Of a stretch of DNA of 32,778 bases, positions 1-31,517 are shown piece by piece. The notes beneath the pieces are model-generated. The model was given only the letters and a program-made list of their open reading frames with translations. It was not told where the DNA came from and ran no database searches. How positions within the stretch are numbered: the first letter of the stretch is position 1; each line of letters starts with the position of its first letter. Both the position numbers and the translations under genes were made by a program. Origin of the DNA: Alphaproteobacteria bacterium. Its GTDB lineage: Bacteria > Pseudomonadota > Alphaproteobacteria > Rs-D84. The stretch lies in the NCBI GenBank assembly GCA_017618595.1, contig JAFZTZ010000103.1:1-32778 (forward strand), given 5' to 3'.

Positions 1-1698
1 CTGTTCTTCTATTTTTGCTTTAAACTCAACATCTGGCGCAGGAAGACCAGCATCTTCAAAAGCGGTCTTTAGCTTTTCGCACTTTCTCTGTGTTGTACCT
101 ACACAATAATACTCAAAAACGAGGGGCATAGACTGCTTTTCAACACTACTACATTCCTGTTCCAAAATGGACTCTGCAAGCAGCGTGTTGGCATGTCCAT
201 CACGATTCACGGTATTATTTGATTGTTGGGGTGTGGAACCCTGGGTGCATTTTGATTTATCTATGTTACAGAACCATTCCCTGCCATAACTTGTTTGATT
301 AACGCCCCAATTACCACCTAATTTATCACACCAATAATGATAACCCGCCGCGTTCTTTATTTCCAATGTCAATGTTCTCTCATCACGATAGGCAGGCATT
401 AGTGCACCACCAACATGTCCCGTTTCGCCGCCGTTATTGCAGAAACGTTCTTGTGTCAAGCCATATGAATTTTGATTATCATCCAATATTGTCCAATCTG
501 GTGTATAAGCATTCGGCGCGGATCCCGATTGGCTTAGCGAAGATGAATGCAAACCGCCATCCCCAGAACTGCTAAGTGGCTTTGCAGCAATCGGTGTAAC
601 ATTTATTGTCCCAGGAACGCATTTACCCTGTTGTTTGTTGTATGTGGCGGTTGGATCCAAACATGTGCATTGTCTTTTATTTTCTGTTTGTGTCATCTTG
701 TCTGGACATATACAATCGCCGTCGGAATCACGTCCGGTTCCACCGCTATTCCGGCATTCTTCGTCCAATGCGGCGGTTAATTCATTCATACTGCGATAAT
801 ATACCGGTTGATCCGCAGGTGTATTTCCATTACCCGCGCCGGCATTATTATCCCGTATTTGGCTAAGGTATTCCGCCGCCCCAAGATCTTCGACATGTTT
901 CAACGTAGATCTATCCACAGTCGATAAATAATTTTTTAATCTGTTTAATGTTTCACACGCATCTCTCTCGTGTTCTTGAACGCCATTTGCGCTGTTATAC
1001 GATACGGTTGACCGCATCACATCCAGATTAACTGTAAATTTACTATAATCCCAATTAGGTGAAATTTGTACCGCCTTGTCACCCGGTATCATATAACCAT
1101 CGTGTGTATATAGTGCCGGTTTGCCTGCATCAAACCCAAATACCAATATCTGTTCTATTTCTTTTATACACCCAAGTATTGCGGCATCATTATTTGTCTG
1201 TATTGGCGCCGATGTTGTATTTTGTGTAATTGGTTTATCTTTGCATTCGCCGTTTACCCACATTCTGCCCAATTGTTCACATTCATATTGCACTCTATCG
1301 CGACATACACCATTTACATATACATGCGTACCATCAGATTCACATGCCATGCGTTTTTGTGCGGCATTACGTCTTGCGATTTCTGAATTTATCTCTACAA
1401 CCTTGGCCTGTTGTTTTTCCAGTTCCAAATTCTTTTCTTCTATCTGTTCCGTCAATTTGTTGCTCTTGCTGGCCTGGGCAATATTTACCCCCACACCAAC
1501 CGCCGTTAATCCAATTGTTGATATACCCGCAATCATAAACCCTTTGCGTTTACCATCGCATTCTTCAAGTTTTGATACCTTTTCTTGCTTTTCACGTACC
1601 AGACGCTGAATCTGTGATGTCATATTTACTGCATTCGCGTCATGCGCAACACAAAGAGCCGATAAACATATTATCGAAGTATATCCTATGAATTTCAT
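1..1698 (-). CDS. Large secreted Cys-rich hypothetical protein (partial, at least 566 aa, 3' end beyond window)
   Basis: Manually translated; absent from the ORF track because it has no stop in the window. ATG at 1698 follows a purine-rich RBS (AGGGGG). The frame is open to position 1. Signal peptide MKFIGYTSIICLSALCVAHDANA, then coiled coil, hydrophobic segment, coiled coil and many Cys pairs. Confidence 0.85.
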   Translation of the reverse strand, partial: MKFIGYTSIICLSALCVAHDANAVNMTSQIQRLVREKQEKVSKLEECDGKRKGFMIAGISTIGLTAVGVGVNIAQASKSNKLTEQIEEKNLELEKQQAKVVEINSEIARRNAAQKRMACESDGTHVYVNGVCRDRVQYECEQLGRMWVNGECKDKPITQNTTSAPIQTNNDAAILGCIKEIEQILVFGFDAGKPALYTHDGYMIPGDKAVQISPNWDYSKFTVNLDVMRSTVSYNSANGVQEHERDACETLNRLKNYLSTVDRSTLKHVEDLGAAEYLSQIRDNNAGAGNGNTPADQPVYYRSMNELTAALDEECRNSGGTGRDSDGDCICPDKMTQTENKRQCTCLDPTATYNKQQGKCVPGTINVTPIAAKPLSSSGDGGLHSSSLSQSGSAPNAYTPDWTILDDNQNSYGLTQERFCNNGGETGHVGGALMPAYRDERTLTLEIKNAAGYHYWCDKLGGNWGVNQTSYGREWFCNIDKSKCTQGSTPQQSNNTVNRDGHANTLLAESILEQECSSVEKQSMPLVFEYYCVGTTQRKCEKLKTAFEDAGLPAPDVEFKAKIEEQ

Positions 1699-13989: not shown

Positions 13990-14523
13990 TTAAACTCTTT
14001 CGACCTGTTCAAAGTCCAAATCAACGCTTGTTTCACGACCGAAGACCAAAATTGTAACGGTCATTTTTTGTTTTACGTTGTCAACTTCGGACACGACGCC
14101 GTTAAAGTTCGCAAATGGCCCATCGATGACATGGACTTCTTGGCCAACTTCGTAAACCATATCGTCTGGAACGGTGCTGCCCTCTTCTACCTGTTTCAAC
14201 AAGCGACGTGCTTCTTCTTCGCTGACCGCGACCGGTTTTTGACGCGCGCCAAGGAACATTACAACCTGGGGCATTAATTTCACCAATGAAAACGTTTCAT
14301 TGTTCATAACCATTTGAACGACGATATAGCCTGGGAAAAACTTTTTTTCTGTTTTAACGCGTTTACCTGCCTTGATTTCTGTAACTTCGCGTGTTGGAAC
14401 CAATATTTCACCGAAATATGCATTCAGGCGACGTTTATCAATTTGTTCGCGCAGATTACGGGCAACTTTGTCTTCGCATCCCGTATGAACATTAACGACA
14501 AACCATTGCATTTTATCTTCCAT
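13990..14523 (-). CDS. nusG: Transcription termination/antitermination factor NusG
   Basis: WFVVNVHTGCEDKV, KKFFPGYIVV, KOW motif VIDGPFANFNGVV, VFGRETSVDLDF. Confidence 0.98.
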   Translation of the reverse strand: MEDKMQWFVVNVHTGCEDKVARNLREQIDKRRLNAYFGEILVPTREVTEIKAGKRVKTEKKFFPGYIVVQMVMNNETFSLVKLMPQVVMFLGARQKPVAVSEEEARRLLKQVEEGSTVPDDMVYEVGQEVHVIDGPFANFNGVVSEVDNVKQKMTVTILVFGRETSVDLDFEQVERV

Positions 14524-14546
14524 CTATATTCCCTTTGGCAAACGCA

Positions 14547-14726
14547 TTAGAAAATCCAACTAACAAGTGCATTTAATATACTGTCGATTACAAAGAAGAA
14601 CAGCGCTGCGATACCCGAAAACACCAAAATCATAATTGTTGCACGAACGACTTCGGCGCGGGTTGGCCAAACAATTTTGAACCACTCGCTGCGGACACCA
14701 CGTATAAAATCCAGTATTTTTTTCAT
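14547..14726 (-). CDS. secE: Preprotein translocase subunit SecE (single TM, ATG start assumed at 14726)
   Basis: VRSEWFKIVWPTRAEV motif plus one TM helix; lies between tRNA-Trp and nusG. Confidence 0.95.
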   Translation of the reverse strand: MKKILDFIRGVRSEWFKIVWPTRAEVVRATIMILVFSGIAALFFFVIDSILNALVSWIF

Positions 14727-14779
14727 TAAACGCACCAATTACCTTTGTTTTTATAAATTCGGTTGCATTCCACAAGATG

Positions 14780-14853
14780 TGGCAGGGGCAGAAGGAATCG
14801 AACCCTCATCCGCGGTTTTGGAGACCGATGTTCTACCATTGAACCATGCCCCT
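14780..14853 (-). tRNA. tRNA-Trp (CCA)
   Basis: AGGGGCA TG GTTC AATGGTA GAAC A TCGGT CTCCAAA ACCGC GGAT GAGGG TTCGATT CCTTC TGCCCCT G CCA: cloverleaf, encoded CCA, G73, upstream of secE. Confidence 0.97.
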
Positions 14854-14943
14854 GGAACCCCAGGATTTTCGCATCCTTGGCCCGAATACATTCCGATATT
14901 CTGCGACAGGTTAGCACATATTCGCAGAAAATCAAGTGCAAAT

Positions 14944-14972
14944 ATTATATTTTTTTTAATAATTTAAAGCAA
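14944..14972 (-). promoter_or_regulatory. Putative sigma70 promoter of the tRNA-Trp/secE/nusG operon
   Basis: TTGCTT-17 nt-TATAAT on the - strand, preceded by an A-tract. Confidence 0.65.
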
Positions 14973-15094
14973 GTGTTTTTTTAGTGGGAAATGGTTAGTG
15001 AAAAGTGGTTAGTGGCTGGCGTAAAAACCGCTTTGATTATTTACCAATTACCAACCACCCAAAAAAACAATTTTTTTAGCAAAAAAACACTTGC
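14969..15094. repeat. 14-bp perfect inverted repeat enclosing a second TTAGTGG heptamer array
   Basis: GCAAGTGTTTTTTT (14969-14982) and AAAAAAACACTTGC (15081-15094). From 14981: TTAGTGG GAAATGG TTAGTGA AAAGTGG TTAGTGG...TTTACCA ATTACCA ACCACCC. Confidence 0.75.
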
Positions 15095-15120
15095 ATTGGG
15101 TGTCTGTTTTTTTCTAAACT
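15091..15120 (+). promoter_or_regulatory. Putative sigma70 promoter of the virB8-9-10-like operon
   Basis: TTGCAT-18 nt-TAAACT, preceded by an A-tract; GGGAG RBS follows. Confidence 0.4.
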
Positions 15121-15147
15121 TACCTTAAGTACAGGGAGAGTTATGTC

Positions 15148-15807
15148 GTGCAAAGCCGCGTAGAACCGCCAATTTTACTATCCAGATTACTGATGTTCGT
15201 GTTCGCTGGAACCGTCGTGGTGCTGTTTGCGCTGTTCTTGACGTTGGGAAAAATGTTCCCACTAAATCGGCCAAATGTGTTCTTCATAACCACGCGTCCG
15301 GCAAATTCTACGATTATTCAAATATCTGAAATGCCCGCAAATGACGAAAATATGGAACTTTACAAGCGCGCATTTGTTATGGAATATGTCCGCGCACGTA
15401 ACGAGGTCGAACACAATGTTTCGTTTATGCGCCAAAAATGGAAAAATGGCGATGGCGGTGTTATCGCCGAATGGTCAACCCCCGCGGTTTACCAGGCGTT
15501 CACTCGCACCGCAATGGTTAACGCCATCAACAGCGATATCCCAGATTTTGAATTTAACTGTCCGGTTGATATAATTGGAACGCCGCGTGCATTTCGTGCC
15601 GATAAATATACTGTGCGTATGCGTTATTATTGTGCAGATAATAGTGGACAAACCCCTGTAAAAGATTATACGATTTATGTTGGGTTAACGGTTGCAGATC
15701 AGGCCCAAATAGAATGGACAGAACGGTTGGATAATCCGTTGGGACTGAAAGTTTCAGAATACACCGTCGAAGGTGGCGTAGATCCATTGGATGCGGTGCA
15801 TAGGTAA
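15148..15807 (+). CDS. VirB8/TrbF-like type IV secretion inner-membrane protein
   Basis: GTG start after GGGAGAG; one N-terminal TM helix; FVMEYVRARNE helix and C-terminal RLDNPLGLKVSEY (VirB8-family NPxG motif). Confidence 0.8.
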   Translation: MQSRVEPPILLSRLLMFVFAGTVVVLFALFLTLGKMFPLNRPNVFFITTRPANSTIIQISEMPANDENMELYKRAFVMEYVRARNEVEHNVSFMRQKWKNGDGGVIAEWSTPAVYQAFTRTAMVNAINSDIPDFEFNCPVDIIGTPRAFRADKYTVRMRYYCADNSGQTPVKDYTIYVGLTVADQAQIEWTERLDNPLGLKVSEYTVEGGVDPLDAVHR

Positions 15808-15832
15808 TTAAATAGCGCAAAGGAAAGGAAAG

Positions 15833-17374
15833 ATGACGTTGTTAAAATTATTGAAGTTAAAAGTATCGGTGGTTGGTGTTATCTGCGCCATATTTACAAT
15901 GAACGCAAATTGTGCGACCAACTATGGCATACAAAGTGCATGGGATAATCCAAACGCCAATATGGCCACAGGCAGCGTGAAACCTGGATACACCCAATTG
16001 GCATGGGAAACGGGAACGGTATTACCGATAAAACTGCGTAATGGTATGGTTACGATGGTTAACCTGCCGAATGGCGAACAAATCGAAGATGCCGTTGTTG
16101 GAAATCCTGGGCTGTTTTCTATCGAAAGCCAACAAGGTACGCGCACAATGTATATCACACCGGCCCCAGACAATATGGGATCCGATACTAACTTAATCGT
16201 AACTGGGAAATCGGGCAACATTTATACTTTATATCTGCGCAGCGAACCATCCAACGCGGCCGATATTACATATTCCCAGGTTGATATCGTTTTGGACGGG
16301 AATGCGCGCATCGCGGGCATTGCACCTGCATCTGCCGGCGCAGCCAGCGGTACAAATTCTATATTCAAAAAATCCGCACCAAAAAGCAATACTGTTGGTG
16401 TCGATGGTGAAGATTACGGTTGGATAAAAACAATGAAAATTGATCCATCCGAATTCCGTTTCGATTTGGATATATTCGTTCCAAACCCGGATGATTATGT
16501 AATTGCACCGGAACGTGTATGGCGTGATCGCGTATTCACATACATTGATTTCGGTGACAAGGTTATTTCTATGACACAACGTCCGGTTGTTTCATTGTTG
16601 GTCGAAGGTGGCGAATCCCCGGTTGGTTTCCGTACCGATGGCCAAGATGGGCGTCTGTTAATCGTAGAAGCCGTTGGCGATATGGTTCTGCGCAGCGGTC
16701 AACGCATTGTATGTATTAAAAAGCGTTCAAAACCGTTCTTGATCGCCGATACTGCAAGTGTTATGGCCCTGGCCGAAGCAAATGTCGCCCAGAGCATGTT
16801 GTCAGGTCAGTCATTGAACAATGTTTTGTATAATTCTAACCAAACTGCAATAAATTCTGGTATGGGGGGGTATACCGCAAGCCCAATGCAGATCGGTAAC
16901 TATGGCACGCAACCAATGCCGATGTCAATGCCGGCACAAAATGGTGCAATGATAATGAATATGTACGGAACCAGCGGCGGTTCATCAACAAACCTGACCA
17001 TGTTACCGACCGAAAGAAATACCGCCGGTTCATATTTACCGCAATCTAATATTCCGCTGATATCCAGCAACCAAAACGGTGTTGCCGTTGAACTGCGTTC
17101 GGATAAAAGTGTCAAGGCATTAGATGATTACTGGGCGGAATTGTTGGCCAAATTTAGTGGCAACGACGGCAAAGGATTACTGACTAAATACAAAGACAGC
17201 GTATTCTATGCGGTTGATGAACAAGGTGTTGGCGAATTAGGTTCAACATCATCGGCGGCACGTCTGTATCGTCTGCGTATTGGTCCAATGCCAGATATTG
17301 ATACGGCACAACAACTGTGCGACCAATTGTTGAAGTTCAGCGGTGCCAGTTGCCAGGTCGTAAGAATCCAATAA
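15833..17374 (+). CDS. VirB9/TrbG/CagX-like T4SS protein with C-terminal SPOR-like domain
   Basis: Signal peptide; N-domain (MVTMVNLPNGEQIEDAVVG...TNLIVTGKSGNIYTLYL); C-domain (PERVWRDRVFTYIDF...PVGFR...VLRSGQRIVCI); low-complexity linker; LYRLRIGPMPDIDTAQQLCDQL...CQVV. Confidence 0.82.
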   Translation: MTLLKLLKLKVSVVGVICAIFTMNANCATNYGIQSAWDNPNANMATGSVKPGYTQLAWETGTVLPIKLRNGMVTMVNLPNGEQIEDAVVGNPGLFSIESQQGTRTMYITPAPDNMGSDTNLIVTGKSGNIYTLYLRSEPSNAADITYSQVDIVLDGNARIAGIAPASAGAASGTNSIFKKSAPKSNTVGVDGEDYGWIKTMKIDPSEFRFDLDIFVPNPDDYVIAPERVWRDRVFTYIDFGDKVISMTQRPVVSLLVEGGESPVGFRTDGQDGRLLIVEAVGDMVLRSGQRIVCIKKRSKPFLIADTASVMALAEANVAQSMLSGQSLNNVLYNSNQTAINSGMGGYTASPMQIGNYGTQPMPMSMPAQNGAMIMNMYGTSGGSSTNLTMLPTERNTAGSYLPQSNIPLISSNQNGVAVELRSDKSVKALDDYWAELLAKFSGNDGKGLLTKYKDSVFYAVDEQGVGELGSTSSAARLYRLRIGPMPDIDTAQQLCDQLLKFSGASCQVVRIQ

Positions 17375-17398
17375 TATAATGTCGGGGAAAATCATATT

Positions 17399-19840
17399 AT
17401 GGGAAAAATAAGTCAACATTTTTCAGATTTTCGTAAATCTACGCCCAAAGCGGTGCTGTGGTTGCTGTTGGTGGCGGCGTTGGTTATCGTCGTTATATTG
17501 TTGCTGTTGATTCTGGGAAATAAAAACAGCAAAAAGATCATCCCCGATACCGATGTTATTCCCGAAACCCCAGAATTGCGTTTTGAACCAAATGCACCAA
17601 TAGATTGGTCAAACACTATGGTTGGCGAAACACGCACCACCGAAATTCAGGTCTATTCCAATGGACGTGTGCAAATTACTGATATCGTTGTCCAAGTTGA
17701 AGACGAAGACGATGACAAGGTTGGTTTATCAACGACTACAACATGTACAAATGAACAAACATTTGTAACCGCGGATACGCCATGTCAGATTACGTTGAAT
17801 TATGAACCAATGCATGCGATGCCACGCACCAATATCGGTGTTGTGATTAAATGGACATCTGTGGATATGGGGCCAGAACCAATCGAAACGAAAAACGCAA
17901 TTACTGGTGTAATTAGTGCAAACGAAAAACCAAAGCCCAAGGTGGAACAAAAACCAGAACCAGAGCCCGTGGAAGAACCTGATGATTTCGATGATGAAGA
18001 TTTAGATGACGACGAAGAGGATTTTGATTCTGATTTCCAAGACGATATTAATGACATTGTGCCACCTGCGGATTTTGCCACACAGCCAATGCCAACAACC
18101 CCAACTGCAACATCGGGCAAATACCGTTCACCATTTGGGAATGGATGTTCTGATTTCTCGTTTCCGGGATATAACACCGCCGGTATACAAAGTGGTTGGA
18201 TAACCCCCAAGGGCGGCGCATATTATTATCATCCATTTTCTGATACAGAATGCAAAAATGCAACGGGCATTTATAATGCGGACACCGGGTACATTATGGA
18301 TATAACAAACCCAACACGTAAAATTGGTTCTGATGTTGAACATATTCGTTTAACACCCCAAGAACGCATGCCATCATTAACCGTGCGTGGCGGTTCTAAA
18401 CGTGCCGGCGCATCGCGTTCATATCAATTAAGTGATGCAGATTTGGGTATTCAAAAGGCGTCCCCAGGTGAAGTAGCTGCAGCCGATTTTAGTCAAGACG
18501 CGGCGTTTCACATCAAAATGAAACCGCACAAGAAAACAAATGAATTTGTCGGCTATGATGATGGTGATACGGTGTATTCCACCCTGCCCTATGACAGATC
18601 ATTTGTTCTGCGCCAATATAAACCAATTCCGGCAACAATTGTTTCAGATATTCAGGCCGATACAAAGTTATTGGAAAGTGGTTTGCCGGTGCGTGCAACG
18701 GTTGATCGTAATGTTTATTCTGATAATGGGCGCACCGTTATAATTCCAACCGGAACATTGCTGTTGGGACGTGTTGTTGGCGACCTGCCTGGGCCATATA
18801 AGGCCGTTGGCCGTATGGAAATAGAATGGTATCAATTTATCCGTCCGGATGGTGTTGAATTCTCGTTCAGTGGGAATAATCCGTTTTCTGGCGATTCCCA
18901 AGGGCGCAAGGGCGTTCCGGGCCACGGCAGTACCGATTATATTCAACAATTTGTTATGCCAATGCTGACCGCAATTGTTCCGGCGGCGGTAAATATGATT
19001 GCACCAATATCTGATGCATTTGTTAATCAAATCGATTTGGATAACAACACCGTTGTACAAAGTGGCACGGTGCGTTCATCTGAACTGGCCAAGAACGAAA
19101 TTATTACTGCATGGAACAATGTCGCAACGAAATTATTGGTTGATATGATGGATAATACAACACCACCGTTTTCTATTGCGGCCGGTACACGTATTACCGT
19201 ATTTTCACCTGTTGATTTGGTTATAACCTGTGGTGATCCAGACAGCGGTGATACACGTCATTGTGCGGTTCATGAACCTGCAAAAATTAAACGCGGGTCT
19301 GTGTCCAGAGAATTCCGGGAATCTCAAAACATGGAAGAGCTAATTGGTCAGGTTCGTTCATTAATGCAATCATCTATTCAGAAAGAATGCTGTGATTGCC
19401 AAGACAATGAATCCTGTGTTCCTATTACCGACGGCACAGGTAAACCAAAGTGCAGCCAATATAGTTTTGCAACAATCGATTTCTATTGCCGTTCATTTGG
19501 TACATACCAGGCCAAGAATAATGCGAAACAAGAAGCATTGTTTGAGAACCAGAAGCAACAGAGTCAAAATCTTACAAAAGGCAGCGTAGAATATAATACA
19601 CAGGTTCTTGGACTTAAATATGACGAAGATGGAAATATTAAAAATCCGTTTGAAAAAGAAAAGAAACCAAAGCCCGAAGCCGCAGCCCCCGAAGAATCTT
19701 CGGTTGTTACATGTGATGGTGGTGCGAACCCTGATGCAAACGGTTGCTGTCCGGGTGAAACATTAACCGATATGGGTGAAGATGGAATGAATTGCTGTCC
19801 GGATGCAGGTGGCGATTGCTTCCCACCAATTGAAATGTAG
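17399..19840 (+). CDS. VirB10/TrbI-like T4SS core protein with large N- and C-terminal extensions
   Basis: N-terminal TM anchor, Pro-rich and acidic linker, TrbI-type core (IPATIVSDI...PVRATVDRNVYSDNGRTVIIPTGTLLLG...GDSQGRKGVPG...IAAGTRITVF), Cys-rich tail; order VirB8-9-10. Confidence 0.85.
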   Translation: MGKISQHFSDFRKSTPKAVLWLLLVAALVIVVILLLLILGNKNSKKIIPDTDVIPETPELRFEPNAPIDWSNTMVGETRTTEIQVYSNGRVQITDIVVQVEDEDDDKVGLSTTTTCTNEQTFVTADTPCQITLNYEPMHAMPRTNIGVVIKWTSVDMGPEPIETKNAITGVISANEKPKPKVEQKPEPEPVEEPDDFDDEDLDDDEEDFDSDFQDDINDIVPPADFATQPMPTTPTATSGKYRSPFGNGCSDFSFPGYNTAGIQSGWITPKGGAYYYHPFSDTECKNATGIYNADTGYIMDITNPTRKIGSDVEHIRLTPQERMPSLTVRGGSKRAGASRSYQLSDADLGIQKASPGEVAAADFSQDAAFHIKMKPHKKTNEFVGYDDGDTVYSTLPYDRSFVLRQYKPIPATIVSDIQADTKLLESGLPVRATVDRNVYSDNGRTVIIPTGTLLLGRVVGDLPGPYKAVGRMEIEWYQFIRPDGVEFSFSGNNPFSGDSQGRKGVPGHGSTDYIQQFVMPMLTAIVPAAVNMIAPISDAFVNQIDLDNNTVVQSGTVRSSELAKNEIITAWNNVATKLLVDMMDNTTPPFSIAAGTRITVFSPVDLVITCGDPDSGDTRHCAVHEPAKIKRGSVSREFRESQNMEELIGQVRSLMQSSIQKECCDCQDNESCVPITDGTGKPKCSQYSFATIDFYCRSFGTYQAKNNAKQEALFENQKQQSQNLTKGSVEYNTQVLGLKYDEDGNIKNPFEKEKKPKPEAAAPEESSVVTCDGGANPDANGCCPGETLTDMGEDGMNCCPDAGGDCFPPIEM

Positions 19841-19862
19841 AGAGAATTAAATAAACTTAACC

Positions 19863-19890
19863 AAACCGCCATCATGGCGGTTTTTTTATT
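19863..19890 (+). terminator. Rho-independent terminator of the T4SS core operon
   Basis: AAACCGCCA-tca-TGGCGGTTT followed by a T-tract. Confidence 0.85.
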
Positions 19891-20141
19891 CAAAAGGATT
19901 GTATATGACATAGCATGAAAAATATCTTGGCCACAAAAAATACAGGGAGAGGGCGTTGCATTTTGCACGTCTTTTTTTATCAAAAAATATAATTGAACAC
20001 GATTCGTGTGCGAAAGAATAAAATCATTAAACGAATCGCAATTCAACGAATCTATTCAATTAAAAGTTGTAATATTTAATTTAGTCAATTGTATAGTTTT
20101 ATATAAAAATATGACGAAATAATAATCAAAGGAGAAATTTA

Positions 20142-20486
20142 ATGACAGATACCCAAACAAATTATACACCCGAAAAATTTCAAAACGCCGAACAATTGTG
20201 GTTCTGGTTTTTATATTCAAAATCTGTGCGCAATGATATTGGGGTGCACCAAAATAAAACATCCACGCGCAGAATTTGCGAATTGGTTGATGTGGAAACA
20301 TTAATTACAAAATTATATTTATGCGGGAAATTAAATGATGCGCATCTTGCCATTCTAAAGGAATTTGGGGATCGGCATCGTGCACCACACCAATATATAT
20401 GGCGCGAAAATCATGCGGCGGCTATTTGGAATTCTGCGATGAGCATCATTGAAAATGCCGCACGTGAACGTGGTTGGATAGAATAA
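20142..20486 (+). CDS. Hypothetical protein (F-x-x-AEQLWFWF motif)
   Basis: AAGGAG RBS with ATG; 114 aa; resembles, from recall only, an uncharacterised alphaproteobacterial family. Confidence 0.7.
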   Translation: MTDTQTNYTPEKFQNAEQLWFWFLYSKSVRNDIGVHQNKTSTRRICELVDVETLITKLYLCGKLNDAHLAILKEFGDRHRAPHQYIWRENHAAAIWNSAMSIIENAARERGWIE

Positions 20487-20506
20487 AAATAAAATGGAGT
20501 GTAAAG

Positions 20507-20842
20507 ATGGTTATAATTGCATTTGCACCGAAATCTTCAAAAATTTTACCAAATATTTTTTGCAAGAAATTTAAACATTGTGCAGTAATTGTGAAAAATC
20601 GAAATGAATTTTTGATGTACCAATTTATATCACGAAATCATATAGACATTATCAAAATCAAATTGCGTGATATTCGTATCTTGGGTCAACACGGATGGCG
20701 ATTCGTTTATATTCCATGCAATATACCATGCGTGTTTCCAATAAAAACATGGACATGTGTAAATTTGGCGAAATATGCAATTGGGTTGCGCGCACCATTT
20801 GTGCAAACACCGGATGCACTATATAAAAGGATTTATGATTAA
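20507..20842 (+). CDS. Hypothetical protein, possible permuted papain-like/NlpC-P60-type hydrolase
   Basis: GGAG RBS before ATG 20507; FKHCAVIV...TWTCVNLAKYAIG...QTPDALY gives His before Cys and a terminal TP-x-x-L. Confidence 0.6.
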   Translation: MVIIAFAPKSSKILPNIFCKKFKHCAVIVKNRNEFLMYQFISRNHIDIIKIKLRDIRILGQHGWRFVYIPCNIPCVFPIKTWTCVNLAKYAIGLRAPFVQTPDALYKRIYD

Positions 20843-20872
20843 AAAAAGTCCGGCATACGCCGGGCTTTCTTT
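20843..20872. terminator. Bidirectional terminator between convergent genes
   Basis: A-tract, AAAGTCCGGC-atac-GCCGGGCTTT, T-rich tail. Confidence 0.7.
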
Positions 20873-22467
20873 TATTTATTTGCCAATTGTTTTTTAATTA
20901 TATATGTTTGAACAATTCCAAATATATTTGATACCGTCCAATACAATACCAACCCCGCCGGCATCCATGCAAACATAACGGTAAATATTACCGGCAACCA
21001 TTTCATAACACGCCCCGTAGATGCCGCTATATCATTGGCATTTTTATCCGTTTTTTTTGTGCGCCCAGATTGCAAATATTGTTGCAACCACATCGTTGCA
21101 CCCATCAGTATCGGCAAAATGAAATATGGATCCATTGCCGCCAAATCATGTATCCACAAAAATCCCGCATTGCGCATATTAACCGAAACCAACAATGCCT
21201 TATACAATGCAAAGAAAATTGGAATCTGCAACAGCATTGGCAAACAACCCGACATTGGCGATGTCTTGTGTGTTTTATACAGGTTCATCATTTCTAATTG
21301 CAGACGCGCCTTGTCATTGGCATACAGTTTTTGTATGCGTTGCATTTCGGGCTGCATCCGTTGCATTTGAATAGATGACACATACGATTTACGCGTTAAT
21401 GGCCACATCAACAAACGCAATAATATTGTTAATAAAATTATCGCAACACCATAATTCATCACAACTGAATTTAATATATTCAATATCCAAAGTAATGGTT
21501 GCGCAAAGAACCAGAACCATCCATAATCAACCGTTTTATTCAGGCCCGACATACTTGTCGCGGCGGCATCCAATATTGTTTGGTCACGTGGGCCGGCAAA
21601 GATAGTCGTTGTAAATACACCTGTATTTCCAGGCATCACAACAACACCCGCCGCCGTACCATCGGTGACATATTTATCACCAACCGATTTGGCACGCATC
21701 GTTTGATCAGGTGATTTTATTTCGGCAATCGTTTGCCAATATTGATCTGCGAAACCAAAGAAACCATTTGTCGTAGAATATGCGTATGATTTTTTATCCA
21801 AACTGTTCCAATCGTTATATCGAACCTTGGAATTAGTATTTGTTATCGCCCCCGTGGAAACACCCGCTGCGTTTTCATGTCCGGTGCGAACAATACGCGC
21901 ATACGGCGCAAATGTTAATTCGCGATTTGTTTTATTTTCAATTGTATCGGTAACATTTATTAAATAACCATCTATTTTAATATCACGCGTGAAAATAACA
22001 CCATCGCCATTACGCCAAACCATTTTACCATCTTGTTCTGCCCAATTTGTTTTTACATCGGGCGCAGTTGTTCCAGTTGCGGTGAAACCAACCTCGGCAA
22101 AATCGGTATCATTGGCCAGTAATGTTACACGCGCACTATCATCTTTGGATGATGTTGCCGCATAAGCCTTTAAAGATACTTTTGATACACGCAACCCTTG
22201 GACATTGGCAACAATTTTATCGCCACTAATTTCACGTGCCGGCAATTCAATGTTATCCGTGGCAACAATTGCAATATCAGAATCTGTTGGTGCGGGCTTA
22301 TCGTTTGGTGTGGTCCACATGCTTAGTAACCACCATGTTCCCAGGAATAAAATCATCCACCACAAAAAACCACCCAATTTTGATTTTGGTTTGTCTGCAC
22401 CCATCGCATTGCGGTTCGCATTCCATGCCGCAAAACCAGAATTATTATTGTTAAGATACTGAACCAT
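20872..22467 (-). CDS. yidC: Membrane protein insertase YidC
   Basis: VDYGWFWFFAQP, NYGVAIILLTILLRLLMWPL, SGCLPMLLQIPIFFALY, WIHDLAAMDPYFILP, PAGLVLYWTVSN. Confidence 0.97.
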   Translation of the reverse strand: MVQYLNNNNSGFAAWNANRNAMGADKPKSKLGGFLWWMILFLGTWWLLSMWTTPNDKPAPTDSDIAIVATDNIELPAREISGDKIVANVQGLRVSKVSLKAYAATSSKDDSARVTLLANDTDFAEVGFTATGTTAPDVKTNWAEQDGKMVWRNGDGVIFTRDIKIDGYLINVTDTIENKTNRELTFAPYARIVRTGHENAAGVSTGAITNTNSKVRYNDWNSLDKKSYAYSTTNGFFGFADQYWQTIAEIKSPDQTMRAKSVGDKYVTDGTAAGVVVMPGNTGVFTTTIFAGPRDQTILDAAATSMSGLNKTVDYGWFWFFAQPLLWILNILNSVVMNYGVAIILLTILLRLLMWPLTRKSYVSSIQMQRMQPEMQRIQKLYANDKARLQLEMMNLYKTHKTSPMSGCLPMLLQIPIFFALYKALLVSVNMRNAGFLWIHDLAAMDPYFILPILMGATMWLQQYLQSGRTKKTDKNANDIAASTGRVMKWLPVIFTVMFAWMPAGLVLYWTVSNIFGIVQTYIIKKQLANK

Positions 22468-23093: not shown

Positions 23094-23948
23094 TTATTTT
23101 TTCTCTTTTCCACCAAGCAATGCTGCTTTGACATGGAACAACACATTTTCATCATATGCCCCGATGGCCTGTTCTAATTTTTCTATGCCATATTTGCGCG
23201 CATATGCAACCAAACAACCATAATATAGCGTAAACGGAATATTCATCGAAATATCAACCAAGCGCAACAATATTGGATTAACGAACGAATAACCATTTCG
23301 TTCTGGTGTAATACCATAGCATTCATGGTGTTCAAACTTATGCGCCGCGACCATAAATATATCTACAAATTCTTGGTCGGTTTTTAATCTATTGTAATCT
23401 ATGTTCCGCAATGCCGCGCCGTTTGTTTTGCATGCGATTTGGCACAGATATTTATATTTACCTGCCTCTAAATATTCTGGGCGCACACACGCAATTTCAT
23501 GTCCCCATGCATCACCGCGTTCCCCGTTCCATGGGCCGCCCACATACGGTCCACGTGCCGACACCGCAATAATGCATAATTTATAATATAATTTTTTAGA
23601 AATCTTGTGTTCTTTGGGATCAACCAACGTCAATAATGTTCCGTAATTTGATAAAGGTGTTTTATAAATACGATAATATTGTTCTTCGTTGATTTTGTAT
23701 TTAACCGGTTCAACAAATGCAACATTGTTATTTTCCGCATCTATAAAATCTTCGCAAATTTGGGTATAGGTTTCTGCATCTGGTTTTTCAAACATACCAT
23801 AAACAGACATATAATCGCGCAGGTTAAAACCCTGTTCAACCATTTTACGTGTATCTTCGCGGTATTTTCTGCGTGTGCGCGCGGTGCGTGCCTGTTCGAC
23901 TTGCTGACGGCCAGGTGTTGCGGTTATAGTTTCTGTATCGTTTTGCAT
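23094..23948 (-). CDS. Hypothetical protein with degenerate helical repeats (DUF4116-like)
   Basis: AAAGGA RBS before ATG (MQNDT...); recurring units such as YTQICEDFI..VAFVEP, YYRIYKTPLSNYGTLLTLVDP, YYKLCIIAV..IACVRP, YKYLCQIACKTNGAALRNID. Confidence 0.7.
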   Translation of the reverse strand: MQNDTETITATPGRQQVEQARTARTRRKYREDTRKMVEQGFNLRDYMSVYGMFEKPDAETYTQICEDFIDAENNNVAFVEPVKYKINEEQYYRIYKTPLSNYGTLLTLVDPKEHKISKKLYYKLCIIAVSARGPYVGGPWNGERGDAWGHEIACVRPEYLEAGKYKYLCQIACKTNGAALRNIDYNRLKTDQEFVDIFMVAAHKFEHHECYGITPERNGYSFVNPILLRLVDISMNIPFTLYYGCLVAYARKYGIEKLEQAIGAYDENVLFHVKAALLGGKEKK

Positions 23949-24037
23949 GGTAAATCCTTTGGTTTTTAACATATTTACACAAAAAAAACGATGTCAATTT
24001 TTATTTATACAATAATTCTGGAAATAAATATATAAAT

Positions 24038-27267: not shown

Positions 27268-28401
27268 TTAATGAAATACATAGCAATCTATTCCTGCGGC
27301 AATACCACGATTTTTTAAATTCTGGGCCGCCGATTCCGAAAGGCCTGTTACACGCACACGATACAACCCCGTTCCCGTTGGTTCAACATGCGCGGCCGCG
27401 CCAAGCGTTCCCTTAATACGTGCAACCATAGAATTTGCCGCATCGGTGGTTGAAAACGCACCAAATTGGACCCCGACGCCACCGGTTGCATATTGGAATT
27501 TTGGCGCATCAGATGCATATTTTTGCACAATTGGCGATGTCGCCGGTGCTGGTTCAGAATGCACAATGGTCGTTGGGGTATTTTTTACAACCATCGGGGC
27601 ACCATTGTCCAACATTGCAAATCCGCGATTTAACATATCTGCGGCCACGTCAGAACGCACATCTTTGGTTTCTGCGCCCAATACCACCGAAATCAAATGA
27701 TGTCCCCCACGCGATGCGGTTGCAACCAATGAATATTTTGATTTATTAGTATAGCCCGTTTTCATACCATCGCATCCCGGGTATGTTTCCAACAACCGAT
27801 TACCATTACTGTATGTTTTGCCGTTATATGTCCAAGTTTTTATACCAAAATATTTCCAATATTGCGGAAAATGTTTATATACCGCCATGGACAGCAATGC
27901 AATATCACGCGCCGTTGAGAGATGATCATCATCTGGCAGGCCCGATGAATTTTCAAAGTTTGTTTGTGATAATCCAATTTCACGCGCGACCCGTGTCATC
28001 AGCGATGCAAATGTTTGCTCTTTGCCACCCTTTAAATTTTCGGCCAACACACGTGCAACATCATTCGCACTATATACCGCCAACGCAATAATCGCATCTT
28101 CGACACGAATTTTTGTTCCCGCGGTCAGCCCCAATTTTACCGGTGCCGCCGACGCAGCACTATTTGAAACGATTAAATAATCATCCAAATGCAAACGTCC
28201 ATGTTCCAACGCATCAAACGTCAAATACAGGGTCATTATTTTGGTCAAACTGGCCGGATAATTTTGCTGTTTTGCGTTTTCTGCAACCAACACACGCCCA
28301 GTATTCATATCGGCGACCAATGCCGCACGGTAATTTGCCGCGTTCGCAACCGCGCACGAAAAGATTAACGGTAAAACAAATAAAAATTTTCTCATTTCCA
28401 T
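27268..28401 (-). CDS. D-alanyl-D-alanine carboxypeptidase (peptidase S11) with C-terminal SPOR domain
   Basis: Signal peptide; SxxK (PASLTK), SxN (SAND), KTG (KTGYT); VQFGAFS...LYRVRV SPOR motif. Confidence 0.93.
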   Translation of the reverse strand: MEMRKFLFVLPLIFSCAVANAANYRAALVADMNTGRVLVAENAKQQNYPASLTKIMTLYLTFDALEHGRLHLDDYLIVSNSAASAAPVKLGLTAGTKIRVEDAIIALAVYSANDVARVLAENLKGGKEQTFASLMTRVAREIGLSQTNFENSSGLPDDDHLSTARDIALLSMAVYKHFPQYWKYFGIKTWTYNGKTYSNGNRLLETYPGCDGMKTGYTNKSKYSLVATASRGGHHLISVVLGAETKDVRSDVAADMLNRGFAMLDNGAPMVVKNTPTTIVHSEPAPATSPIVQKYASDAPKFQYATGGVGVQFGAFSTTDAANSMVARIKGTLGAAAHVEPTGTGLYRVRVTGLSESAAQNLKNRGIAAGIDCYVFH

Positions 28402-31106: not shown

Positions 31107-31517
31107 TTATTTAAACAATATCTCTAATTCCTTTTGTGTCTTTTCATCTATCATTTTTGCTTGTAAATGTTGATGCGGGTTGTCGGCTTCGACTTCTGGC
31201 CAGAAACATTTATGGTCATTTAAATTGAAATCCATCTCTATCCAACTTTTATCTTCAGGAATTCCTATATTTTTGGTATCCAGTATAAAGAAATCTAATT
31301 TATAATCAGCATTTGAATACGTTATAAAGGTGTTTCTTACGCTTTCCTTTTCCAATTTTATATCTTTTCCATCAACAGATATTATTGCATAGTTTTTATA
31401 TAATTTTATATCCGTTGTTGGCCTACCTTCTTCAGCACCATCGCAGAAAAAACCTGTCCCTACATCAGAACAAGCAGTTAAGCCAATCAAAATCGGCAAA
31501 ATATATAGCAGTTTCAT
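31107..31517 (-). CDS. Hypothetical lipoprotein
   Basis: AAGGAG RBS; MKLLYILPILIGLTA-C lipobox. Confidence 0.85.
   Translation of the reverse strand: MKLLYILPILIGLTACSDVGTGFFCDGAEEGRPTTDIKLYKNYAIISVDGKDIKLEKESVRNTFITYSNADYKLDFFILDTKNIGIPEDKSWIEMDFNLNDHKCFWPEVEADNPHQHLQAKMIDEKTQKELEILFK

Follow-up and report, generated by a model that had tools for sequence, protein, structure and literature searches.

A virB8-virB9-virB10 islet in Candidatus Enterousia points to a dispersed chromosomal type IV secretion system, probably for contact-dependent protein delivery

We analysed a stretch of 32,778 bp, here called the window, which is the entire contig C69 of a draft genome (G000) of Candidatus Enterousia in the order Rs-D84 (936,789 bp, 110 contigs, completeness 84.7%, contamination 6.2%). 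An original prediction, made from the letters alone, had placed three co-oriented genes for VirB8, VirB9 and VirB10, core subunits of type IV secretion systems (T4SSs), at 15148..19890. The open reading frames (ORFs) were found in the same orientation, on the forward strand, at 15148-15807 (virB8), 15833-17374 (virB9) and 17399-19840 (virB10). Each product scored above its Pfam cut-off, and the modelled folds of VirB9 and VirB10 fitted those of solved T4SSs, bearing out the proposed identities. NCBIfam gave the same three names, yet with scores far short of its equivalog cut-offs, and public pipelines already name homologues automatically as 'TrbG/VirB9 family' and 'TrbI/VirB10 family'. Together with further parts scattered over the same genome, the three genes almost certainly encode the core of a T4SS, an identification that is structural. 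We read them as one islet of a complete, vertically inherited, dispersed chromosomal P-type T4SS that probably acts in contact-dependent protein delivery.

The islet lies between plsX, rpoC, rpoB, rplL, rplJ, rplA, rplK, nusG, secE and tRNA-Trp (14780-14853) on its 5' side and two small ORFs, yidC, lspA, a Kef-type antiporter gene, ksgA, recR and genes for a D-Ala-D-Ala carboxypeptidase and an ABC transporter on its 3' side. The core-gene flanks described earlier are thus present, with the rpoBC, ribosomal and secE genes on one side and yidC-lspA on the other. The earlier statement that VirB4, VirB11, VirD4, VirB6, a relaxase and an integrase are missing from the window also held in a Pfam scan of its 28 ORFs, none of these being found among the 25 ORFs other than the virB genes. 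An A+T-rich spacer, delimited by reading the sequence, extends on the + strand from tRNA-Trp to virB8 (14854..15147). It contains the ribosome-binding site GGGAGAG (15134-15140), 7 nt after which virB8 starts with GTG, and presumably the promoter of virB8. The particular promoter that had been predicted did not stand up to comparison with chance, as 20 sigma-70-like sites were counted in 14500-21000 against 20.0 ± 5.3 in shuffled sequence; the single + strand promoter-like site listed upstream of virB8 lies at 14921-14948 and has 9/12 matches. The clear terminator of the prediction was recovered at 19863..19891. A G+C-rich hairpin (19863-19883), with a stem of 9 pairs, 5 of them G-C, and a loop of 3, begins 23 nt past the virB10 stop codon and is followed by a T-run. 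The structure forms a hairpin when read on either strand, the T-run given being that of the + strand, and it closes the virB8-9-10 operon.

VirB8 (219 aa; 15148..15807, + strand) matched PF04335 over residues 16-207 with 39.3 bits (cut-off 23.2), and an N-terminal hydrophobic segment is consistent with a bitopic inner-membrane scaffold. Against sequences in the PDB it gave weak matches to VirB8 chains (E 0.011-0.039). The protein was recovered at 6/6 same-genus loci with 34-50% identity.

VirB9 (513 aa; 15833..17374, + strand), the putative outer-membrane core-complex subunit, matched PF03524 (CagX/VirB9) with 72.8 bits (cut-off 34.2). It is laid out as a signal peptide, an N-terminal beta domain (~53-154), a C-terminal beta domain (~200-297), a low-complexity linker (~298-415) and a SPOR-like tail. 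A search against PDB sequences gave nothing at E <= 1. The AlphaFold model (me8f88eebe84e) has a mean predicted local distance difference test (pLDDT) score of 54, with ~83 for the N domain, and its top Foldseek matches were Xanthomonas citri VirB9 (6gyb_B, 2.1e-12), R388 TrwF, the Legionella Dot/Icm system (7muc, chain H) and Helicobacter pylori CagX/CagY (6x6j). Full-length comparison gave 67-71% identity for VirB9 in the genus and 39-44% in the order as a whole.

The tail of VirB9, residues ~417-513 (17081..17371, + strand), scored 23.4 bits against the SPOR family PF05036 (cut-off 21) over residues 472-511. Its model follows the order beta-alpha-beta-beta-alpha-beta with a pLDDT of ~78, and Foldseek matched it to the SPOR domain of RlpA (6i09_A) with an E-value of 6.1e-3 and a template modelling score by target of 0.69. 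The tail is kept in 31/31 rows of the VirB9 alignment (A2), 8 of them from other families of the order. In the lineages sister to Rs-D84 that were tested, VirB9 has 511-596 aa and aligned through the SPOR tail in 5/5 genomes, and the fusion is therefore older than the order. In both family score and fold the tail resembles the SPOR domains of RlpA, FtsN and DamX, and differs from them in being joined to a secretion-channel subunit. Since the fold is of a peptidoglycan-binding type, the tail may tether VirB9 to the cell wall. We found no published account of a VirB9 with a SPOR domain in the full-text literature. A second SPOR fusion in the window is a D-Ala-D-Ala carboxypeptidase (27268-28401, - strand; PF00768) with a C-terminal SPOR domain (39 bits).

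VirB10 (813 aa; 17399..19840, + strand), the predicted envelope-spanning subunit, matched PF03743 (TrbI/VirB10) over residues 404-604 with 63.2 bits (cut-off 35). Its N-terminal part contains a transmembrane (TM) helix (17-39), a PapD/Ig-like beta-sandwich (56-178), an acidic Pro-rich linker (183-248) and a small beta domain (250-315); the TrbI barrel with two antenna helices (~390-610), a helical extension and a cysteine-rich module follow. The best match among PDB sequences was CagY (E 3.4e-6). The model (mbc1cba34c964; mean pLDDT 61) was matched by Foldseek, through the barrel, to CagY (6x6k, 1.5e-9), TrwE, X. citri VirB10, TraF and ComB10, and its N-terminal sandwich was matched to ASH/PapD-like domains. 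We collected 884 VirB10 homologues, and among the 120 listed, full-length matches reach down to 45% identity; within the genus the identity is 41-48%. Taken together, the PDB sequence searches (E 0.011 for VirB8, nothing at or below 1 for VirB9 and 3.4e-6 for VirB10) bear out the description of these proteins as strongly divergent.

The C-terminal module of VirB10 (19706..19834, + strand) ends in CFPP plus 1-2 residues. In an alignment of 24 rows (A3), 13 columns are invariant, 6 of which are Cys, and no Pfam family covers the module. A profile search of 1.84 billion representative sequences gave 297 proteins at E <= 0.001, and in nearly all of the 150 listed the module is terminal. Within the genus, other envelope proteins also end in it: some are TM-anchored and have 80-98 aa, others are exported, have 176-230 aa and contain it once or twice, and a third group is bitopic (670-830 aa), each member combining a single membrane helix with a conserved cytoplasmic domain and a linker rich in Pro, Glu and Val. 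The module was missing from VirB10 of other Rs-D84 families (0/8) and of a sister lineage (0/1), and so the Cys tail of VirB10 is a recent, lineage-specific addition; a proposed role in the envelope is taken up below. Further proteins with this module in the genome under study include one that is TM-anchored and 89 aa long and a pair of exported paralogues of ~225 aa (C50:7129-7398(-), C51:2046-2720(+) and C42:974-1657(+); relatives at L038-L057), and the two paralogues have an acidic D/E/F-rich stretch in common with VirB10. A 615-aa Cys-rich protein considered as a further carrier was rejected, as it has a hydrophobic C-terminal tail without the module.

We then searched the remaining contigs for the rest of the machine, and the check for virB4, virB11 and virD4 that had been proposed was successful for all three. 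virB3 (PF05101) and virB4 (805 aa; PF03135, 49.6 bits, cut-off 21) are found on contig C46, after ychF and a SufBD-like gene. A VirB11-like ATPase of 331 aa (PF00437, 77.5 bits) is encoded on C20 between an FKBP isomerase gene and priA, and VirD4 (766 aa; PF02534, 148 bits, with PF12696 and PF10412) on C96, near an LpoB-like gene, lpxD and RNA-modification genes. Phmmer found no paralogues of VirB4, VirB8, VirB9 or VirB10 among the 3834 ORFs of this 84.7% complete genome, each protein finding only itself. Directly 3' of virB4 (C46:5478-8210; L006) come two ORFs without a family match, one of 208 aa, exported and possibly lipidated, and one of 639 aa. The latter was considered as a VirB6 and rejected, since it has no hydrophobic stretch evident by eye and matches no family. 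PF00437 also matched, with 221 bits, the PilB-type ATPase of a separate cluster resembling a pilus or type II secretion system (T2SS), next to lpxC (C75:782-5475; L009), which includes a T2SSF platform protein and a PilO-type accessory protein (PF06864).

The same check for virB6 and virB2 was answered in part, with candidates on C9 and C83 and no direct Pfam match for either. Five adjacent VirB6-like paralogues of 422-481 aa, each with 5-8 predicted TM segments, are encoded on C9 between rpmE and a UvrD-like helicase gene, one gene being divergent and four in tandem. PF04610 (TrbL/VirB6) found nothing in this genome, and was above cut-off in 11/61 genomes of the order; in one other family (f3) it marks arrays of five adjacent polytopic genes, five such VirB6-like genes being present in each of two f3 genomes. 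Phmmer joined 4/5 of the C9 paralogues to these arrays (E 3e-13 to 1e-3) and the fifth only to its neighbour (E 3e-3). The best matches between the C9 and f3 arrays are roughly collinear, which suggests that the five-fold duplication is older than the split of the two families. A profile of 15 VirB6-like proteins gave no meaningful match among PDB sequences. The VirB2-like protein on C83 (119 aa) has a signal peptide and two hydrophobic helices. PF04956 (VirB2) was above cut-off in 11/61 genomes, all outside the genus, and the 119-aa ORF is 40-54% identical to ORFs with weak PF04956 matches in two same-genus genomes. Beside it is a gene for a conserved 121-aa lipoprotein, which is a candidate VirB7. 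A complex prediction for VirB9 residues 185-300 with this lipoprotein scored 0.04 against a mark of 0.32; being made without controls, it is evidence neither way. The genome contains one SLT-domain protein, for which no link to the T4SS was found.

The genome thus carries six T4SS loci on six contigs, each set among housekeeping genes. The word 'stand-alone' used for the islet in the original prediction is true of the locus and not of the system, the other parts of which lie on five further contigs. In a closed same-genus genome assembled into a single contig (G075, 958,618 bp), the five sites located are spread over the chromosome, namely virB9 (27.7 kb), a VirB6-like gene (68.7 kb), virD4 (131 kb), virB4 (206 kb) and virB11 (803 kb), and the system is dispersed as had been proposed. 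A 648-kb contig of an f3 genome (G040) carries the VirB6 array (~149-159 kb), virB4 (435 kb), virB2 (480 kb) and virB11 with virB8-10 (486-492 kb). The virD4 match of G075 (C1:131209-133464) contains one in-frame TGA, for which a sequencing error, a broken gene or recoding are possible explanations.

Conservation was assessed in 61 Rs-D84 genomes, all metagenome-assembled genomes (MAGs). VirB4 was found in 61/61, each genome having a single full-length copy, of which two are split by contig ends, and no match contained a stop. VirB10 was found in 40/41 genomes, comprising 24/24 further genomes of the genus and 15/16 of five other families, and the sole miss is a 72%-complete genome. The block from rpoB to secE is followed by virB8-9-10 at 6/6 same-genus loci, with yidC-lspA next in 4/6. 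In other families, virB9 lies next to virB10 at 8/8 loci, the flanks are unlike those of the window, and a 214-251-aa ORF in the VirB8 position is a candidate VirB8 by position. An exported ORF of 119-152 aa with a conserved N-terminal motif comes after virB10 at 5/8 of these loci (L029, L031, L032, L033 and L035; families f3, f4 and f5); the genus to which the window belongs has no such ORF there. A VirB4 scan of species-representative genomes gave at least 80 loci at 70-97% identity, all of those listed Enterousia-like, from gut sources that include rumen, goat, sheep, yak, deer, horse, chicken, mouse and human.

We then built a quick maximum-likelihood tree (IQ-TREE) of 42 VirB4 proteins, leaving out G421, G112 and G101 (internal stop) and L195 (a duplicate of L105). 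The 15 Rs-D84 proteins formed one clade with a Shimodaira-Hasegawa approximate likelihood-ratio support of 99; families f1, f2 and f3 were each monophyletic and f5 grouped with f6. Rs-D84 was joined, with a support of 100, by a sister clade that comprises 17 proteins of 9 alphaproteobacterial families with genomes of 1.1-2.5 Mb, and four plasmid VirB4 proteins fell outside. In a class-level sample of 401 genomes, VirB4 proteins with 39-43% identity were present in nine further families, and with 35-38% in five more. The near-universal presence of VirB4 (61/61) and VirB10 (40/41), the synteny at 6/6 loci and the order-level VirB4 clade bear out vertical inheritance. The patchy spread and the clustering with plasmid systems beside a relaxase that would have counted against the original prediction were not seen, VirB4 being in 61/61 genomes and plasmid VirB4 proteins lying outside.

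In two genomes of the sister lineages, G137 and G103, the T4SS occupies one block made up of virB3 and virB4, then five or six exported ORFs, then virB8 in two copies and virB9. The block of G137 continues with a 913-aa ORF, a 1571-aa virB10 and virB11; virB10 and virB11 were not located in G103. Because the system is contiguous in these lineages and scattered in Rs-D84, the comparison suggests that dispersal is the derived state. VirB4 of the sister lineages is 39-43% identical to that of Rs-D84, and their long VirB9 aligns through the SPOR tail in the five genomes mentioned above. In the sister blocks (L230-L233; G137:C19 and G103:C14) the virB8 copies are in tandem, and the exported ORFs between virB4 and virB8 belong to no known family.

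Among described systems, the rvh T4SS of Rickettsiales is the closest in layout. It is described as a vertically inherited archipelago of five islets with five VirB6 paralogues and without virB5, in which virB4, virB8 and virB9 are duplicated (Gillespie et al. 2009, PMC2653234). The Enterousia system is similar in being a chromosomal, vertically inherited P-type T4SS set in islets among housekeeping genes, in having five VirB6-like paralogues, the VirB6 identity of which is indirect in Enterousia, and in having a VirB2-like gene with no virB5 found. Further likenesses are a VirD4 without a relaxase in nearly all genomes and a small-genome, host- or partner-dependent alphaproteobacterial owner. 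The two differ in that virB4, virB8 and virB9 are single-copy in Enterousia, whereas in rvh all three are duplicated (PMC2653234). They differ also in that virB11 and virD4 are solo islets in Enterousia, that its VirB9 has a SPOR tail and its 813-aa VirB10 extra domains, and that an ATP/ADP translocase was undetected in Rs-D84, in a search that matched no control genome either. We do not class the system as rvh, since the duplications are lacking; it resembles rvh in organisation, and any common descent of the two is putative.

With the minimal P-type systems, Agrobacterium tumefaciens VirB/VirD4, R388 Trw and pKM101 Tra, the Enterousia system has the part list VirB2, 3, 4, 6, 8, 9, 10, 11 and D4 in common, its VirB2 and VirB6 being candidates, and with TrwF/TrwE and TraF the two-domain fold of VirB9 and the VirB10 barrel with antenna helices. 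Those systems differ in being contiguous operons, mostly plasmid-borne and with relaxases, in having a VirB9 of ~250-300 aa and a VirB10 of ~380-400 aa, and in their VirB5 and VirB7, which were not recognised in Enterousia. The Cag system of H. pylori is similar in that CagY is the best match of VirB10 both among PDB sequences (3.4e-6) and by fold, and CagY is an earlier example of a VirB10 homologue enlarged by extensions specific to one lineage. The homologous part is, however, the barrel only. The cag genes form one contiguous pathogenicity island, which encodes many further components, and CagY has repeat regions.

By sequence, the closest named relative is the T4SS of plasmid pMVF16-3 of Microvirga sp. 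VF16 (NZ_CP069357.1), with identities of 32.5% for VirB4, 33% for the VirB9 core and 29% for the VirB10 barrel. Its VirB9 is also long (550 aa) and has N-terminal and central motifs in common with that of Enterousia. It differs in that the genes form a contiguous virB2-3-4...8-9-10-11-D4 cluster beside a MobA/MobL relaxase, its VirB9 gave no SPOR match and the Cys module is absent.

That relative raises the question of whether the Enterousia machine moves DNA, either as the scattered mating channel of an integrated conjugative element or as a DNA-release system. VirD4, the coupling protein of conjugation, is encoded in the genome, and an intact PF03432 relaxase is present in one genome of the order (G030). 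Nevertheless, relaxases are scarce: PF03432 was above cut-off in 2/61 genomes, one of the two matches being broken, and PF08751 and PF03389 in 0/61 each, against 61/61 for VirB4. Since the T4SS was present in every genome searched, conjugation is unlikely as its conserved role. The window itself has no integrase or relaxase, the VirB4 tree follows the organismal families with the plasmid proteins outside, and the islets lie among housekeeping genes at sites that are fixed within the genus. We consider a DNA-transfer machine quite unlikely on these grounds, and the phrase 'rather than conjugation' in the original prediction receives support from the scarcity of relaxases, support that is indirect. 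A sub-threshold relaxase-like match (21.4 bits) was seen in a same-genus genome at G006:C8:39107-39322, ~7 kb from virB10 of locus L026.

A bacteria-killing T4SS of the Xanthomonas type, injecting toxins into rival bacteria on contact, seems to us similarly improbable. The best fold match of VirB9 is that of X. citri (6gyb_B), X. citri VirB10 is among the top matches of VirB10, and the habitat of the organism is a dense bacterial community. The fold matches to R388, Cag and Dot/Icm are, however, similarly strong, and a genome of ~0.9 Mb without biosynthesis fits partner dependence better than competition (PMC12306168). The XVIPCD family (PF20410) had no match in the genome under study, and as it had none in 14 control genomes either, this result is uninformative.

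We give still less credence to DNA uptake of the ComB type, in which scavenged DNA would supply nucleotides. In its favour, Rs-D84 is reported to be without nucleotide synthesis (PMC12306168). A VirB9 homologue is called 'ComB9 competence protein' in one public source, and the NCBIfam ComB10 model matches VirB10 with 46.9 bits, far from its cut-off of 300 and below the 63.5 bits of the VirB10 model in the same scan. The ComB system of H. pylori is not known to have VirD4 or VirB11, and the presence of both in the Enterousia genome argues against uptake of this kind. That the genes are a decaying remnant without present function, as their dispersal and the undetected VirB5 and VirB7 might suggest, is hardly credible, given intact and strongly conserved reading frames (VirB9 67-71% identical across the genus), VirB4 in 61/61 genomes with no stop in any match, and ~0.9-Mb genomes whose coding density of 89-91% leaves little space for relics (PMC12306168).

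The role that we consider reasonably likely is contact-dependent translocation of proteins to a partner cell, whether for effector delivery or for feeding. Enterousia/Rs-D84 genomes are <1 Mb and lack synthesis of amino acids, nucleotides and lipids, upper glycolysis, the TCA cycle, respiration and standard transporters (PMC12306168), and nine Enterousia MAGs have ~0.9 Mb with a coding density of 89-91% (PMC12306168, Table 1). An obligate symbiont or parasite lifestyle has been proposed for Rs-D84 in the same study (PMC12306168). Ankyrin-repeat ORFs were above cut-off in 31/61 genomes of the order, with up to 13 matches per genome, and are compatible with effectors aimed at eukaryotic cells. 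Small ankyrin-repeat ORFs, for example G000:C90:4319-4600, are candidate secreted proteins, and three genomes of 0.6-1.0 Mb (G069, G070 and G077) have 10-13 matches. A flagellate host cannot be general, since Rs-D84 MAGs are reported from termites with and without flagellates (PMC11257099).

Several points weigh against protein delivery by a complete T4SS. The VirB6-like and VirB2-like proteins of this genome have no direct Pfam match and were assigned through transitive similarity and topology; VirB5 (PF07996) was not found, in a search with a weak control, and VirB7 is not established. The AlphaFold models of VirB10 and VirB9 have a low overall confidence (pLDDT 61 and 54). The relaxase searches covered three Pfam families in MAGs, and a divergent relaxase or a DNA substrate is possible. 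Ankyrin repeats also occur in 5/14 control genomes and are no proof of a eukaryotic target, and substrates, effector signals and target cells are so far hypothetical. PF03219, the family of the ATP/ADP translocase, matched 0/61 genomes, but none of the control genomes either, which makes the result uninformative. With regard to expression, contigs from RNA libraries of two studies are identical to segments of virB9 over 271 nt (X19) and 204 nt (X20), a weak hint that the gene is expressed, and a contig of run X20 overlaps 14882-15031 in the spacer, also a weak hint. These contigs may stem from DNA carry-over. virB8 and most of virB10 have no such cover, which is uninformative given the low depth of the contigs.

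The general architecture of T4SSs is established, with a core complex of VirB9 and VirB10, a platform that includes VirB8 and the ATPases VirB4, VirB11 and VirD4. Beyond the gene identities, completeness, dispersal, conservation and relaxase scarcity observed here, we infer how the Enterousia machine may be assembled, what it may carry and to which cell, and what its SPOR and Cys modules may do. VirB9 and the barrel of VirB10 would build the outer-membrane core complex, with VirB10 crossing the periplasm from its inner-membrane helix, and the SPOR tail would fasten the VirB9 ring to peptidoglycan. VirB8 would seed an inner-membrane platform with VirB3, VirB4 and the VirB6-like proteins, while VirB4, VirB11 and VirD4 would supply power and substrate selection. 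On contact with a partner cell, which may be bacterial or eukaryotic, the machine would translocate proteins into or onto it, and this delivery would serve the partner-dependent life that has been proposed for these metabolically reduced bacteria, not the transfer of a plasmid or an integrated conjugative element.

A more far-reaching version, which we think unlikely but worth stating, takes the T4SS as a contact organelle, anchored to peptidoglycan by the VirB9 SPOR tail, with which an epibiont or parasite lives an obligate, extracellular life in the gut, and in which the CFPP-ending Cys module docks envelope proteins at a common outer-envelope site, perhaps the T4SS core. If true, docking by the Cys module would be an undescribed principle of sorting or assembly, and the docked set would range from small proteins with a membrane anchor and secreted ones of ~200 aa to TonB-like bitopic ones of ~700 aa. 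In that case, a second lineage of reduced Alphaproteobacteria would have evolved an rvh-like archipelago that includes five VirB6 copies.

Bacteria of the Rs-D84/Enterousia group occur widely in the guts of ruminants, horses, chickens, mice and humans. Their T4SS, found in all genomes searched, offers the most concrete approach to how they might acquire metabolites, and it is a leading candidate for a means of reaching other cells. In the full-text literature we found no published account of a T4SS in Rs-D84/Enterousia, a search that did not cover Begmatov et al. (2023, Microbiology 92:S50), and a genome analysis of Rs-D84 makes no mention of a type IV secretion system (PMC12306168). The parts list names proteins for localisation, VirD4 as a bait with which substrates may be sought, and genes whose transcripts can be traced in metatranscriptomes. 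The system would add a second alphaproteobacterial group with a scattered T4SS and five VirB6 paralogues, and a VirB9 joined to a SPOR domain, a putative peptidoglycan tether that is older than the order. The contiguous T4SS of the sister group makes the break-up of the operon traceable.

Three other window ORFs had no Pfam match: 1-1698 (- strand), which runs off the contig end and encodes at least 566 aa, 23094-23972 (- strand, 292 aa) and 31107-31517 (- strand, 136 aa). After the terminator, two overlapping small ORFs of 114 and 122 aa (20142..20842, + strand) have a putative link to the T4SS only. No Pfam family matched either of them. They come after virB10 at 5/6 same-genus loci, with identities of 59-68% and 40-50%, respectively; at locus L026 (G006:C8:38000-57999) of a same-genus genome, neither the two ORFs nor yidC-lspA lie 3' of virB10. 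The named Atlas clusters closest to the 122-aa ORF are YiiX/NlpC-P60-like hydrolases (0.83 and 0.80), which we take as a lead only, and the closest unnamed clusters are mostly viral.

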